This document shows positions 3,770 to 16,178 of a DNA stretch of 24,000 nt, one piece after another. The notes beneath the pieces are model-generated. The model had not been told where the DNA came from. It made no database searches and saw only the letters and a list, made by a program, of their open reading frames with translations. Both the position numbers and the translations under genes were made by a program. The stretch lies in contig NZ_BALG01000064.1 in the NCBI RefSeq assembly GCF_000315235.1, positions 1-24,000 of the forward strand, in the 5' to 3' direction. Source of the DNA: Paenibacillus popilliae ATCC 14706. GTDB taxonomy: Bacteria > Bacillota > Bacilli > Paenibacillales > Paenibacillaceae. Every line of letters begins with the position of its first letter. The first letter of the stretch is position 1.

Positions 3770-5493
3770 TGCGTCTCCCCCCCTTCCATGCGAATCATGT
3801 CGTAGTAAGCGCCCCGCTTGGCCAGCAGCTGCTCATGGGTCCCCGTCTCCACCACCTTGCCATCCTGCAGGACAATCATCCAGTCCATATCTGGCATCCA
3901 ATGCAGGCGATGCGTAGCCAAGAAGACGAGCCGATCCCGGAACAGCTCCAGCATCGTCGACTTCAGCTCATATTCGGTCTCGATATCCAGATGCGCCGTC
4001 GGTTCATCCAGCAGCATTATCGGTCGGCTGCTCAGAAATGCCCGCGCCAGCGCAACCCGCTGCTCCTGACCGCCGCTGAGCGAGCGGCCGCCGTTGCCAA
4101 TGCGTTCGTCCAGGCCGTTCGGAAGTTGTTCCGCCAACTGCCCCAGCCCCGCGGCGGCCATCGCCCGCTCGACCTCGTCATCGGTCGCGTCCGGCGCATA
4201 GAAGCGGACGTTATCCGCCAGCGAGGCGCTGAAAATGTACGGATGCTGCGGGATGTACGTCGTCTGCTTCCGCCAGTCCTCCCCGGTCAGCGACGCCCGT
4301 TCCTGTCCGTCCACCCGGATCGTCCCTGCGGTCGGGTCCAGGAAGCCGCCGATAAGATCGATCAGCGTTGACTTGCCGGCCCCGCTCGCGCCGATGATGC
4401 CGACCTTGCGGAAGCCTTGAATTTCCAGATCGATCTCCTGCAGCGAGGAGGGGCCCTCCTTCTCATGCCGCATCCCGATGCCGGTCATTTGCAGCACGCT
4501 ATCCTGCGTCCAGGCCGGCAGCGCCTGCGAGGCAGGCGCCGGCTCCGACTGCGCTGCCGCGCGAATTAGGGCCTGCATCGCCTCCCCTGCTTCCTTCCCG
4601 TCCAGCGTCGCGTGATAATCGGCCCCGACCATGCGCACCGGAAGGAAATATTCCGGCGCCAAGATCAGGATCGTCAGCGCGGTAACGAGCATCATCTCCC
4701 CGTTCACGAGACGCAACCCGAGGCTGACCGCTACAGATGCGACGGACAGCATCGTGAAGAAGTCCAGGGAGAAGGAGGACAAGAAGGCGACGCGCAAGGT
4801 GCGCAGCGTGGCCGAACGGTATCGGTCGCTCACCTTGGAGACGGTGGCCCCGTGCGATCGGCTACGTCCGAGGAACTTGAGCGTTTCCAGACCGCGCAAC
4901 GAATCGACGAAATGATTCGACAGCCGCCGGTACGACGCCCACTGCTGTTCGGTCTGCTTGCGCGCAGCCAAGCCGACCAGAATCAGAAACGCGATGAGAA
5001 TCGGCATCGTCACCGCCAGAATCAGGGCGGCGACGATATCCTGGGCCACAATGTACGCAAGGATAAGCACCGGTGTCACGGCGGTCCCGATCATGCGGGG
5101 CAGGAACAGCTCCATATATTTGCGGAACTTCCCGACCCCTTCAAGCACAAGCGTTACCGTGGTGCCCGTTCCCACTGTCCGGGTATGCCGCGGCCCAAGA
5201 CGGAACAGCGCCTCCAGCAGCTGGCTCCGCAGGCTGGCGCCGGTCTTCTCCGCGAAGCGGTAAGCCACCTTCTGCTGCAGCAGCGCCGTCAACTGGCGGA
5301 GGAGAAACGCAAGCAGGAACAACCCGATCTTGTCGGCTTGTTCCTGCCATGCCGCCCCGGCGAACAGAGCGGATATTGCTTCTGCCAGCCAGATGGCCAG
5401 CATAATAATAGATAGTGCGTGCACCAGGGCAAGGGCGCTCAGGCTGGCAAGAACCGGCTTGATCCCTTGGTAGCCGAATAGATTCTTGCCCAT
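3766..5493 (-). CDS. cydD: Thiol reductant ABC exporter subunit CydD (first ABC gene after cydB; named CydC in B. subtilis usage)
   Basis: 575-aa ORF with a TM domain and an ABC ATPase: Walker A GASGAGKST, signature LSGGQEQRVALARAFL, Walker B IMLLDEPTAHLD. Its start overlaps the cydB stop by 1 nt at 5493. Confidence 0.9.
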   Translation of the reverse strand: MGKNLFGYQGIKPVLASLSALALVHALSIIMLAIWLAEAISALFAGAAWQEQADKIGLFLLAFLLRQLTALLQQKVAYRFAEKTGASLRSQLLEALFRLGPRHTRTVGTGTTVTLVLEGVGKFRKYMELFLPRMIGTAVTPVLILAYIVAQDIVAALILAVTMPILIAFLILVGLAARKQTEQQWASYRRLSNHFVDSLRGLETLKFLGRSRSHGATVSKVSDRYRSATLRTLRVAFLSSFSLDFFTMLSVASVAVSLGLRLVNGEMMLVTALTILILAPEYFLPVRMVGADYHATLDGKEAGEAMQALIRAAAQSEPAPASQALPAWTQDSVLQMTGIGMRHEKEGPSSLQEIDLEIQGFRKVGIIGASGAGKSTLIDLIGGFLDPTAGTIRVDGQERASLTGEDWRKQTTYIPQHPYIFSASLADNVRFYAPDATDDEVERAMAAAGLGQLAEQLPNGLDERIGNGGRSLSGGQEQRVALARAFLSSRPIMLLDEPTAHLDIETEYELKSTMLELFRDRLVFLATHRLHWMPDMDWMIVLQDGKVVETGTHEQLLAKRGAYYDMIRMEGGETQ

Positions 5494-14139: not shown

Positions 14140-15093
14140 CTATATTAGGTTGAACAAAATCGCTGCGCCCAGAGCGGCAATTCGGGCCATATTCGTGATG
14201 ATGAAGTTTTTGACCGCCAAGACGAAGGTATGCTCCTTGGTCTGCTTCTGCTGGAAAGTGCGGATATTGCGCTGTACCGGTATCAGCGTGCTCAGGACAA
14301 GCAGCACAATAATCGGGTTGACCTTCAAGATAAACAGGACGATAAGATCCAGATAGGATGCGTAATAGACGATGCGGAACAAGGCAAGCGCACTCGCCTT
14401 CCCGATATAGACCGGTAGCGTATACCGCTTATTTTCCACATCGTCTTCCATGTCGCAAATATTGTTGGCCAGCATAATATTCGCGATGCACAGAATCGCC
14501 GGAATCGAGATCAGGAATACCAGCAGCACTTCGATCATATTGATATCAACCTTTATATGCCAGTCCTCCAGCCACAAGGCCACCAGCTGATGATCTTCCA
14601 CATGAATATACGTGGAGATGAAGATGATAACGAACCCCATGAACAACCCGGAGAACAATTCCCCCAGCGGCATGCGGGAGATCGGGACCGGCCCGAGCGA
14701 GTACAAAAAGCCGACCAAAAACGATATTCCGCCTAAAAGCAGGATCAGCAGGCTGGTCTGGAGGAACAGAACAACCCCCGTGCTTATCGCGATTACGAGC
14801 AGCGTCATAATAGTGGCGACGACAGTCGATTCCTTCAATTGGTACTGCACGATCGCATTATGGACCTCATAGCCGTAGCCATAGGTTTTGATCGCCTTCT
14901 TGTAATCGTAATAGTTGTTGATGGCCGTGGCCGCCATATCGAAGGACAGCAGAGAGGCCAGCATCAGCAAAAAATGGCCGACTTCGAAGGATTGGAACCG
15001 AAATACGGCATACAGACTGCCGATAAAGAAGGGGATCATGCTGGCTGTTTTGGTCTGGATCTCGACCAGCTTGAGAAAGTTTTTGATCGTCAC
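14140..15093 (-). CDS. menA: UbiA-family prenyltransferase, MenA-like (1,4-dihydroxy-2-naphthoate polyprenyltransferase)
   Basis: 317-aa polytopic protein with two UbiA motifs: a degenerate first one (NNYYDYKKA) and NNICDMEDD, compare MenA NNIRDxxxD. GTG start with AGGAG 8 nt upstream. Confidence 0.8.
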   Translation of the reverse strand: MTIKNFLKLVEIQTKTASMIPFFIGSLYAVFRFQSFEVGHFLLMLASLLSFDMAATAINNYYDYKKAIKTYGYGYEVHNAIVQYQLKESTVVATIMTLLVIAISTGVVLFLQTSLLILLLGGISFLVGFLYSLGPVPISRMPLGELFSGLFMGFVIIFISTYIHVEDHQLVALWLEDWHIKVDINMIEVLLVFLISIPAILCIANIMLANNICDMEDDVENKRYTLPVYIGKASALALFRIVYYASYLDLIVLFILKVNPIIVLLVLSTLIPVQRNIRTFQQKQTKEHTFVLAVKNFIITNMARIAALGAAILFNLI

Positions 15094-15257
15094 GTTTCAA
15101 GCTCCTCTGCATGTACAGCACCCGTAGGGGCATCTTTCTGTTTTACTTCTTTTCCTCTAAACTGTACCACCAGTTCCAAGGACCGTCCAGTTCCTTCGTT
15201 TCTCCCGAAAAACACAAAAAAAGCCCATAAAAATCTAGTCCGTGCACGCGGTTCATC

Positions 15258-15286
15258 TTGACAAGCCATTCTATCAATATTACTCT
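15258..15286 (+). promoter_or_regulatory. Candidate promoter for the PPEP leader
   Basis: TTGACA (15258-15263), a 17-nt spacer, then TACTCT, which is a weak -10. TATTAC at a 14-nt spacing is the alternative. Confidence 0.25.
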
Positions 15287-15334
15287 AAAGACAGATAAAT
15301 CGCTAGATTTTTCTTCCAATTGGATATCTATCCT

Positions 15335-15425
15335 AGTAATAAAAGCAAACCTATCGAAGGATGGGGACACAAGGCTACAGGGGTTTCAGCGAATGAGACT
15401 CGCTATGCCAGCCAGCTACCAAGAA
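15335..15425 (+). promoter_or_regulatory. Divergent GEMM-I (c-di-GMP-I-like) riboswitch aptamer in the PPEP leader
   Basis: aaaAGCAAACC-UAUC-GAAG-GAUG-GGGACACAAGGCUACAGGGG...CGCUAUGCCAGCCAGCUACC follows the GEMM-I order (GGCAAACC-stem-GNRA-stem-GGGACGCAAAGCC...UAUG.CAGCC.GG.U.CC). It has substitutions at several normally conserved positions. Confidence 0.5.
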
Positions 15426-15521
15426 TGAAGCAAGCTCCGAACTGCGCGATCAACTCTACCAATCCGGATGGAATGGAAGAGTCGCGGAGCAGAGACGCCA
15501 GGCTTAAGAGGAGAGATTGCG

Positions 15522-16178
15522 ATGAAATGGGACAAGCGTCTGTTGGGCATCTTTGTATTGACCGGTATCTTGTTCATGGTACCGGTCTATCCGGTTCATG
15601 CCAAGGATGCCATTATCGAAAAATTAGTCGTGCTGCCAAGCAGTGATTATAATGTCAAGGAAGCGGAAGCCATGAAGGAGCGGCTAGCCAAGATCCCCGC
15701 CCACATTCTGAACAAGCTGCATGACAAGGGTGTCAAAATCAAGCTGACGAACGATATTATTACGAACGAACCGGAGTTAAGTTATTTGAAGGGCGTTACG
15801 CCGCGAGGCTGGGAAGGCACCGGCAAGACGTGGGACGATGTTCCCGGCGTCAGCGAGCACGTAGTCGTTGCCCGTATCGGTTACAGCAAGCAGGGCCAGG
15901 GACACAATTCGTTCAATCTGGAACTTCACGAGACCATGCATGCGGTAGACTGCATCGTCTTCAATGAAATCAGCAGCACCAAGGAATTTAAGAACATCTT
16001 CAACCAGGAAGCGAACATCAACTATTACGAGGACGGCTACGTGTTGGCCTATCCAGTCGAATACTTCACGGAGACCGCCAGCTTGTATGTATATAGCGAC
16101 GCCACGCGGGAAGAGCTTAAGAAGACCACCCCGCTCACCTATGAATTTATGGACAAGCTGTTCACCAATCCATCATAG
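15522..16178 (+). CDS. Secreted Pro-Pro endopeptidase, PPEP-2-like (M34 / anthrax-lethal-factor-like zinc metalloprotease)
   Basis: AAGAGGAGAG lies 6 nt upstream of the ATG at 15522. Signal peptide MKWDKRLLGIFVLTGILFMVPVYPVHA|KD. YLKGVTPRGWEGTGKTWDDVPG, NLELHETMHAVD (HExxH at 15927-15941) and PVEYFTETASLY match C. difficile PPEP-1 as I remember it almost block for block. Confidence 0.9.
   Translation: MKWDKRLLGIFVLTGILFMVPVYPVHAKDAIIEKLVVLPSSDYNVKEAEAMKERLAKIPAHILNKLHDKGVKIKLTNDIITNEPELSYLKGVTPRGWEGTGKTWDDVPGVSEHVVVARIGYSKQGQGHNSFNLELHETMHAVDCIVFNEISSTKEFKNIFNQEANINYYEDGYVLAYPVEYFTETASLYVYSDATREELKKTTPLTYEFMDKLFTNPS

Follow-up and report, generated by a model that had tools for sequence, protein, structure and literature searches.

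A single GEMM-I aptamer before a Pro-Pro endopeptidase gene of Paenibacillus popilliae is probably a recombinant relic of tandem c-di-GMP riboswitches

The DNA examined in this work is a 24-kb stretch of Paenibacillus popilliae ATCC 14706 (the window, whose positions are used as coordinates throughout), and its subject is an RNA element found in the leader of a gene for a secreted metalloprotease of the Pro-Pro endopeptidase (PPEP) type. The gene lies on the plus strand (15522..16178) and encodes a 218-residue member of the ATLF family with a HETMH motif (Pfam PF07737, 190.8 bits, E 2.6e-56), which is 100% identical to P. popilliae ATCC 14706 PPOP_1359 / WP_042227698.1. Its ratio of nonsynonymous to synonymous substitution rates (dN/dS) of 0.2-0.3 with respect to relatives denotes purifying selection. 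The ribosome-binding site, AAGAGGAGAG (15506..15515, plus strand), is kept in relatives and ends 6 nt upstream of ATG 15522, which is the true start of the protease. The GenBank entry GAC42002.1 (236 aa) begins at ATG 15468, inside a leader hairpin described below, while the RefSeq entry WP_042227698.1 (218 aa) and all orthologs begin at 15522 (MKWDKRLL...) with the strong ribosome-binding site before it; the additional segment of the longer call (15468-15521) is part of the 5′ untranslated region (UTR) annotated as coding. Convergent with the protease gene, on the minus strand (16244..19519), is the gene for its presumed substrate, a surface protein in which Pfam recognizes VWA, Ig-like, MucBP and SLH domains and whose translation (...KPLLPLPPVPPKL...) contains PLPPVP. 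Such a PPEP-2/VMSP arrangement is described in PMC8610288.

A scan of the whole window with Rfam covariance models returned two matches to RF01051, the GEMM-I family of class I riboswitches for cyclic di-GMP (c-di-GMP): one in the PPEP leader, at 15334-15423(+), with 54.6 bits, and another before the substrate gene, at 19624-19711(-), with 62.6 bits. The PPEP-leader match (15334..15423, E=2.5e-08) spans the full model (1-87) and exceeds the gathering cut-off of 35 bits, and the P2 and P3 parallel helices both align together with the conserved junction sequence. The proposal of a first-pass annotation, made from the letters alone, that a GEMM-I homolog precedes the PPEP gene is in this way borne out. 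A permissive rescan of 14900-15700, at E<=10, uncovered no second or weaker aptamer remnant, hence the leader is not a doublet of two complete aptamers with their own platforms. A degraded aptamer upstream of 15334 was also considered and rejected, as the sequence at that place is a conserved promoter block.

The PPEP-leader aptamer was compared with 46 related ones (32 from the PPEP leaders of 16 Paenibacillus species, four from Clostridioides difficile and ten from substrate leaders). At the columns equivalent to positions 20, 35, 45 and 49 of the Vc2 aptamer, all 46 present G, A, G and A, and the window presents A, G, A and G. At 15344 (model position 11, plus strand), A occupies the place of G20, the base making a Hoogsteen contact to one c-di-GMP guanine. 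At 15369, A in place of G45 converts the C22-G45 pair, located beside or beneath the pocket, into a C.A mismatch, and this pair and one gap position in P3 are flagged as noncanonical in the alignment, the substitutions in the stems being wobble-compatible. At 15373, G replaces A49, which in Vc2 stacks on G83 (PMC11705072), and at 15359, G replaces the last base of the P2 tetraloop (position 35), which becomes GAAG (15356-15359) and is no longer a GNRA loop, the type that docks into the P3 receptor, whose 5′ half reads UUUCAG (CUUCAG in the sister clade, one base apart). With A45 and G49, the invariant core ACGCAAAGC reads ACACAAGGC. The equivalent of G14 is mutated to A at 15338. Two residues in direct contact with the ligand are retained, namely A47 (15371), which intercalates between the ligand bases, and C92 (15419), which pairs in Watson-Crick fashion with the other guanine. 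The inspection of columns 20, 47 and 92 that the first-pass annotation had recommended therefore yields A, A and C, and the alterations it had listed at ligand-contact and core positions (A20, ACACAAGGC for ACGCAAAGC and the GAAG loop) are all present in the alignment and in the raw sequence. Two further P2 substitutions, at 15352 (C>T) and 15365 (C>G), equal the state of the proximal aptamer of related leaders (CCT...GGG), and they may represent a small patch of conversion between the two aptamers rather than independent point mutations.

The leaders of relatives place this element in a different light. After retrieval of 26 loci with PPEP homologs and their scanning with Rfam, the 16 Paenibacillus-type loci (L001-L015 and L025; protein identity 59-87%) were each found to contain two RF01051 matches upstream of PPEP, a distal aptamer (a1) and a proximal one (a2), lying ~190 nt apart and scoring 72-87 bits. 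Two tandem canonical GEMM-I aptamers also occur in 21 further strain loci of the sister clade, and a third RF01051 match, of 57-67 bits, stands in front of the substrate gene wherever the locus extends far enough. The PPEP leaders of C. difficile have a single aptamer. In the coordinates of L001-L015 and L025, where PPEP starts at 5001, the tandem leader spans about 4610-5000. The a1 aptamer is followed in 16/16 orthologs by an intrinsic terminator (CCCUUCUUAyUUCGGUAAGAAGGG-U5), and its tail (UUACCGA) can base-pair with UCGGUAA, which lies in the loop and 3′ arm of that terminator, the positions involved showing only wobble-compatible changes across species. This leader folds into either an antiterminator or the terminator, from which we infer for a1 an OFF-switch logic, as for zmpI of C. 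difficile. In most species, only a short hairpin, which ends at the ribosome-binding site, comes after a2, and an invariant GUCAACUCCGUAUUGAC element stands before a2. P. apiarius and P. profundus have a second terminator there, and the clade of P. dendritiformis, P. thiaminolyticus and P. melissococcoides has a ~100-nt platform lacking a U run. RNAalifold, applied to the distant orthologs, found, besides the hairpin of the platform, one of GUCAA with UUGAC located upstream of a2; the GUCAACUCCGUAUUGAC element can form the latter, presenting CUCC. The a2 platforms of the sister clade resemble each other too closely to display covariation, and their pairing registers shift between strains. The PPEP leader of Paenibacillus is thus ancestrally a mixed tandem, in which a terminator-type unit is followed by a unit abutting the ribosome-binding site. 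Tandem c-di-GMP-I riboswitches are common, with 347 doublets and 12 triplets catalogued (PMC9481103), and this particular arrangement is new: neither it nor its collapse is mentioned in those passages of PMC8610288 that matched term searches, or in the other literature searched.

When the window was aligned to the sister clade (three species representatives and 21 strain loci, with 12 distinct leaders), its single aptamer turned out to be composed of parts of both units. The segment 15334..15406 (plus strand), comprising the 5′ flank, P2 and P3 up to ...CGCTAT, lines up with the a1 unit in P. dendritiformis, P. melissococcoides and P. thiaminolyticus; it includes the a1-specific P3 loop GAATGAGACTCGCTAT, and the promoter upstream is also shared. 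The segment 15416..15521, made of the 3′ tail CTACC (with C92 at 15419) and the platform region up to the start codon, corresponds to the tail of the sister-clade a2 and to what follows it; from C15416 it reads CAGCTACC and then AAGAATGAAGCAAGC... to the ATG. The final a1-diagnostic bases are 15404-15406 and the first a2-diagnostic base is C15416 (CAGCTACC vs CAGTTACC in a1), and between them lies a crossover zone, GCCAGCCAG (15407..15415), that is the same in a1 and a2 of the relatives and marks the junction of a ~192-nt deletion. Consistently, the spacer between UbiA and PPEP measures 428 nt in the window vs 623 nt in 22/24 sister-clade loci, these 22 being the ones that cover it entirely (the contigs of the other two end early upstream). 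The deletion removed the 3′ strand of the a1 P1 helix (GAUAGA), the a1 antiterminator and terminator, the 5′ P1 strand of a2 and the GUCAACUCCGUAUUGAC element. It explains why the fused aptamer has flanks derived from different units, the 5′ one being that of a1 and the 3′ one that of a2, so that G14-C93 and the neighboring pairs of P1 are missing; the best duplex between the aptamer flanks reaches -1.4 kcal/mol in the window, and in the sister clade -6.1 to -8.7 for a1 and -5.5 to -6.2 for a2. The deletion also explains, through the removal of the a1 terminator, the lack of a U-tract terminator in this leader, a point made in the first-pass annotation and confirmed here: no terminator-like site exists on the plus strand between the aptamer and ATG 15522.

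What remains downstream of the aptamer does not resemble a read-out for it. Folding recovers a leader hairpin (15434..15490, plus strand) made of an outer helix, GCUCCG 15434-15439 / CGGAGC 15485-15490, and inner CGCGA/UCGCG and CUCU/AGAG pairings. The long-range helix announced previously (GCUC..CGCGA/UCGCG-GAGC) thus appears in the predicted folds, but its stability is not significant with respect to shuffled sequences (z -1.6), nor is that of the aptamer fold (z -1.2). The CUCC at 15435-15438 can pair alternatively with the GGAG of the ribosome-binding site (15510-13). A pyrimidine tract at 15309-15318 was considered as a long-range anti-Shine-Dalgarno (anti-SD) element and discarded: equilibrium folds do pair it with the ribosome-binding site, the duplex has a z of -1.25 against shuffles, and the pairing shows no trend in 17 relatives, so it was not taken as a designed element. 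Neither of the two pairings with the ribosome-binding site, by CUCC or by the pyrimidine tract, is better than chance or linked to the aptamer. In the folds, no competition between aptamer and platform was observed, and the terminator/antiterminator of a1 and the element upstream of a2 are deleted; a recognizable expression platform is therefore missing.

The pace of change in this region is equally informative. Across 10 distinct leaders of the sister clade, whose PPEP genes differ by a synonymous divergence (dS) of 0.09-0.27, a 59-nt a1 core shows 0 variable columns. In the same core, the window has accumulated 8 derived substitutions (13.6%), and elsewhere in the leader 15/267 (5.6%) at otherwise invariant columns (Fisher p=0.046), at a PPEP dS between window and relatives of about 0.25-0.32, and the Rfam score has fallen by 22 bits, from the 76.7 of a1 in L001 to 54.6. 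The segment that evolves most slowly in the relatives thus evolves at a roughly neutral rate in P. popilliae. Substitutions fall on invariant and variable columns in proportions (4/16 vs 3/30) that do not differ significantly (Fisher p=0.22), which indicates nothing beyond loss of constraint.

A close relative offers a second view of the same process. L027 (2819-2903), from the Logan assembly of SRR24034862, has a PPEP dS of 0.063 vs the window and also a single aptamer, of 51.7 bits. Its junction differs from that of the window, as it follows a1 up to GATGGCGAC and continues with an a2-derived P3, with the crossover near GACGCAAAGCTA. It has A20 and A45 in common with the window, and beyond these carries A47U and, in P2, a G.G mismatch; the altered tetraloop base at 15359 is private to the window lineage. 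Because they are common to both genomes, A20, A45 and the changes in the P1 3′ strand of a2 (CAATATTG -> CAAGAATG) are older than the split between the window and L027. It follows that the collapse occurred twice, or once with an unrepaired heteroduplex that segregated into two lineages, and that hits at invariant positions went on accumulating in both lineages afterwards. Over the ~40 nt of a1-derived aptamer shared by the two, there are 6 differences, where ~2.5 would be expected from the PPEP dS (Poisson p about 0.04). The PPEP gene of L027 carries a C-terminal frameshift (303 aa). L027, recovered via a cluster member, is the only genome of the lineage that could be added: exact protein look-ups with the window PPEP and UbiA gave none, and two metagenome scans for lineage-specific leader patterns gave 0 matches.

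Upstream of the aptamer, a sigma-70-like promoter is predicted at 15258..15286 (plus strand), with a -35 box TTGACA (15258-15263), a 17-nt spacer and a -10 box TACTCT (15281-15286). The pattern TTGACA-17 nt-TA(C/A/G)TCT is present in all sister-clade leaders, directly upstream of the distal aptamer; a simple promoter scan did not list 15258-15286, whose -10 box agrees with the consensus at only 3/6 positions. Between the -10 box and a1 (window 15295-15318) there is a motif, (C/T)AGAT(A/T)... TAGATTT(A/T)TTT(T)CC, kept across distant Paenibacillus and often formed by two AGAT-containing half-sites, which could be the transcript start or a protein operator.

The aptamer of the substrate gene (19624..19711, minus strand) served as an internal control, and its 62.6 bits are within the range of orthologous substrate leaders (57-67). 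It keeps every invariant core position as well as its intrinsic terminator (19593..19636, minus strand), whose 5′ arm, UCCGGCUGCG, coincides with the aptamer's own 3′ strand. This overlap points to an ON-switch logic, the reverse of what a1 would do in the protease leaders of relatives. The minimum-free-energy fold forms the terminator. Given that this aptamer is intact, c-di-GMP sensing as such has not been abandoned in the P. popilliae genome. As regards the substrate gene, it contains at 17380-17654 (minus strand) 6.5 copies of a 42-nt unit with 98% identity, encoding DDVVDSGIG(T/M)NIEG repeats, and an internal segmental duplication (17221-17410 vs 18562-18760, 85-86% identity) in which part of the C-terminal region of the VWA domain recurs; the protein has 1091 aa vs 1685-1890 aa in the full-length gene calls of P. 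dendritiformis and P. thiaminolyticus. Beyond it, a 135-aa open reading frame (19854-20261, plus strand) resembles the inosine-uridine nucleoside hydrolase profile, of 297 positions, only over positions 165-208. It probably represents a pseudogene or a piece of a gene, as would be in keeping with genome decay in a pathogen restricted to its host.

These observations can be integrated by assuming that the element is a recombinant relic of tandem class I c-di-GMP OFF riboswitches, with PPEP expressed constitutively, and not a new ligand class. We regard this as the probable explanation, and the element as probably a decaying switch and not one that senses a new ligand. In the ancestral state, as seen in relatives, a single promoter would drive a1 with its intrinsic terminator and then a2, whose platform abuts the ribosome-binding site; the UUACCGA/UCGGUAA pairing of a1 would let the ligand-free RNA read through, and the ligand-bound RNA would terminate. 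A deletion between the two aptamers, which are direct repeats, would then have joined, in the lineage of P. popilliae, the 5′ part of a1 to the tail of a2 within GCCAGCCAG (15407-15415), leaving a fused aptamer unable to close P1 and deprived of both known read-outs. Substitutions would since have accumulated, at about the neutral rate, in its ligand-contact and tertiary-contact residues. The leader would no longer sense a cyclic dinucleotide, PPEP would be transcribed constitutively from the retained promoter, and translation would be set only by a static ~230-nt leader, including the hairpin 15434-15490 and possibly a ribosome-binding site that is partly occluded. Expression of the substrate adhesin, in turn, would still be induced by c-di-GMP through its own intact ON riboswitch. 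Judging from sequence, PPEP is thus most likely uncoupled from c-di-GMP. The first-pass annotation had expected opposite regulation of protease and substrate, by analogy with C. difficile: this is supported for the relatives, and in P. popilliae it is most likely lost on the protease side.

Several facts sit uneasily with this explanation. The score is still well above the Rfam gathering cut-off, and P2 and P3 are intact, with three stem changes that allow wobble pairing and another, C15365G, that mends a C.C mismatch; moreover, A47, A48, C44, the G83 equivalent and C92 are all kept. The outer leader helix, imperfect in the sister clade (GCGCCG / CGGAAGC), is perfect in the window and in L027, and this is due to two changes common to both (G>U at 15436 and the loss of one A), a lineage-specific tightening that hints at some continuing selection on leader structure. 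PPEP itself is under purifying selection, and the ~190-nt leader has not been purged. The equilibrium folds cannot prove the absence of a switch. Finally, Vc2 with the G20A mutation binds both dinucleotides at about 50-120 nM (PMC6140456), and some residual binding is therefore possible.

In another reading, which we hold to be unlikely, the hybrid aptamer is a working riboswitch of lower affinity, possibly bispecific (with c-di-GMP as well as 3′3′-cyclic GMP-AMP, 3′3′-cGAMP, for ligands), that acts on translation, the ligand deciding whether the anti-SD-like CUCC (15435-15438) pairs with CGGAGC (15485-15490) or with GGAG (15510-13). Its 54.6 bits, the intact P2/P3, the presence of A47 and C92, the nanomolar affinity of Vc2 G20A for both ligands (PMC6140456) and the purifying selection on PPEP agree with such a switch, and so does the fact that a platform-only fold pairs GCAA.CUCC with GGAG...UUGC (~0.7 probability) while the GCUCCG/CGGAGC alternative is available, both pairings having been created by the G>U change at 15436 that L027 also has. 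Against it, P1 cannot form, which leaves the pocket unconnected to the downstream sequence; inspection of the folds revealed no aptamer segment complementary to the platform so as to compete with it, and fold energies are no better than those of shuffles (z -1.6 and -1.2). Four invariant positions are altered, L027 carries A47U, and the aptamer evolves at about a neutral rate. Tetraloop changes are not innocuous either in Vc2, of which a GUAA variant binds at 2.2 nM (PMC5888326) vs the picomolar affinity of the wild type (PMC6140456). A third reading builds on the A at position 20, which the first-pass annotation gave as the signature reported for the 3′3′-cGAMP-responsive GEMM-Ib subclass while leaving the ligand open: a 3′3′-cGAMP-selective riboswitch would have retargeted PPEP to another second messenger. 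The substitution at 15344 does characterize the cGAMP-responsive GEMM-I variants (PMC6140456, PMC9481103), but here it is confined to two very close genomes, with G in 46/46 of the other aptamers, and it comes along with pocket-adjacent and tertiary-contact damage and with the loss of P1 and of both expression platforms, not as a base maintained by selection in an otherwise intact pocket, P1 and platform; besides, the other genome that has it, L027, lacks the intercalating A47. In Vc2, G20A gives a dissociation constant (Kd) of 53 nM for c-di-GMP and 120 nM for cGAMP, and several natural A20 aptamers are bispecific (PMC6140456): A20 alone thus leads to bispecific rather than selective binding, that is, it is necessary for cGAMP recognition and insufficient for selectivity. 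As characterized GEMM-Ib riboswitches are moreover concentrated in Geobacter (PMC8835794), we consider this retargeting highly improbable.

Scarcely credible, in turn, is that the single aptamer is an artifact, produced by the collapse of two tandem repeats during draft assembly. It is true that both single-aptamer genomes are draft or short-read assemblies. Nevertheless, a1 and a2 share no more than 9 and 12 identical nt at the respective junctions, much less than the k-mers with which assemblers work; the single aptamers appear in two independent assemblies with different junctions, and both genomes carry many additional point differences from their tandem relatives, so the possibility was rejected. 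A last alternative accepts the loss of the switch and regards it as adaptive. In the lineage of P. popilliae, an obligate insect pathogen, the two OFF switches of the adhesin-shedding protease would have been disabled by point mutations and then collapsed by deletion; the first hits would be A20/A45 in a1 and the changes in the P1 3′ strand of a2, common to both genomes, and the deletion would have taken place twice independently, or once with heteroduplex segregation. If so, PPEP would be made whatever the c-di-GMP level, with the substrate still c-di-GMP-inducible. We judge this version doubtful, and its bolder variant would have the hybrid aptamer re-tuned to a different or dual ligand and read out via the CUCC/GGAG pairing.

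What is new here is of modest scope. Class I c-di-GMP riboswitches before Paenibacillus PPEP-type proteases and their substrates were already published, so that a GEMM-I match in this leader was to be expected and the element as such is not new; the novelty lies in the mixed tandem of the ancestral leader and, in P. popilliae, in its collapsed, chimeric and decaying product standing beside the intact riboswitch of the partner gene. It would constitute a clean natural example of tandem riboswitch loss, and it predicts that adhesin shedding is uncoupled from c-di-GMP in P. popilliae. It also calls for caution in annotation, as an above-threshold Rfam match with an 'A20 signature' can be a pseudo-riboswitch and not a cGAMP sensor, and 'A20' calls for phylogenetic context before it is taken to indicate a ligand.

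The comparison with known systems underlines both the kinship and the singularity of this locus. In C. difficile, the class I element of zmpI is an OFF switch and the substrates are switched ON (PMC6366702). As in P. popilliae, a homologous protease, PPEP-1 (44% identity), lies behind a GEMM-I aptamer (73.8-75.1 bits, L019-L024), and c-di-GMP controls the substrate adhesin in the opposite direction (PMC6366702). However, C. difficile has one canonical G20 aptamer and class II ON riboswitches on the substrates CD2831/CD3246, whereas in P. popilliae the ON switch of the substrate belongs to class I and the aptamer of the protease is a damaged fusion with no recognizable read-out. Also close are the Paenibacillus 'group A' PPEP-2/VMSP loci, for which PMC8610288 reports class I c-di-GMP riboswitches in both 5′ UTRs, and in which PPEP is likewise convergent with a VWA/SLH surface protein carrying PLPPVP. 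Where the 16 orthologous loci have two tandem canonical aptamers, P. popilliae has a single chimeric one that scores 22 bits lower. The ancestral PPEP leader recalls the catalogued tandem c-di-GMP-I doublets (PMC9481103) and the Bc3-5 triple tandem of B. thuringiensis (PMC4759541), as it is a doublet with one platform per aptamer, and most ortholog doublets combine a terminator-type first unit with a second unit abutting the ribosome-binding site; the P. popilliae leader, unlike those systems, is the product of a collapsed doublet. Lastly, it resembles the GEMM-Ib riboswitches (Gs1761, Gm0970, Cbe 1-2) and Vc2 G20A in having an A where the RNA touches the ligand's alpha base. In GEMM-Ib, though, the remaining pocket, P1 and the platform are intact and the variant is kept across many loci (PMC8835794, PMC5888326), while the A20 of P. 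popilliae arose recently, in its own lineage, as one of several damaging changes.

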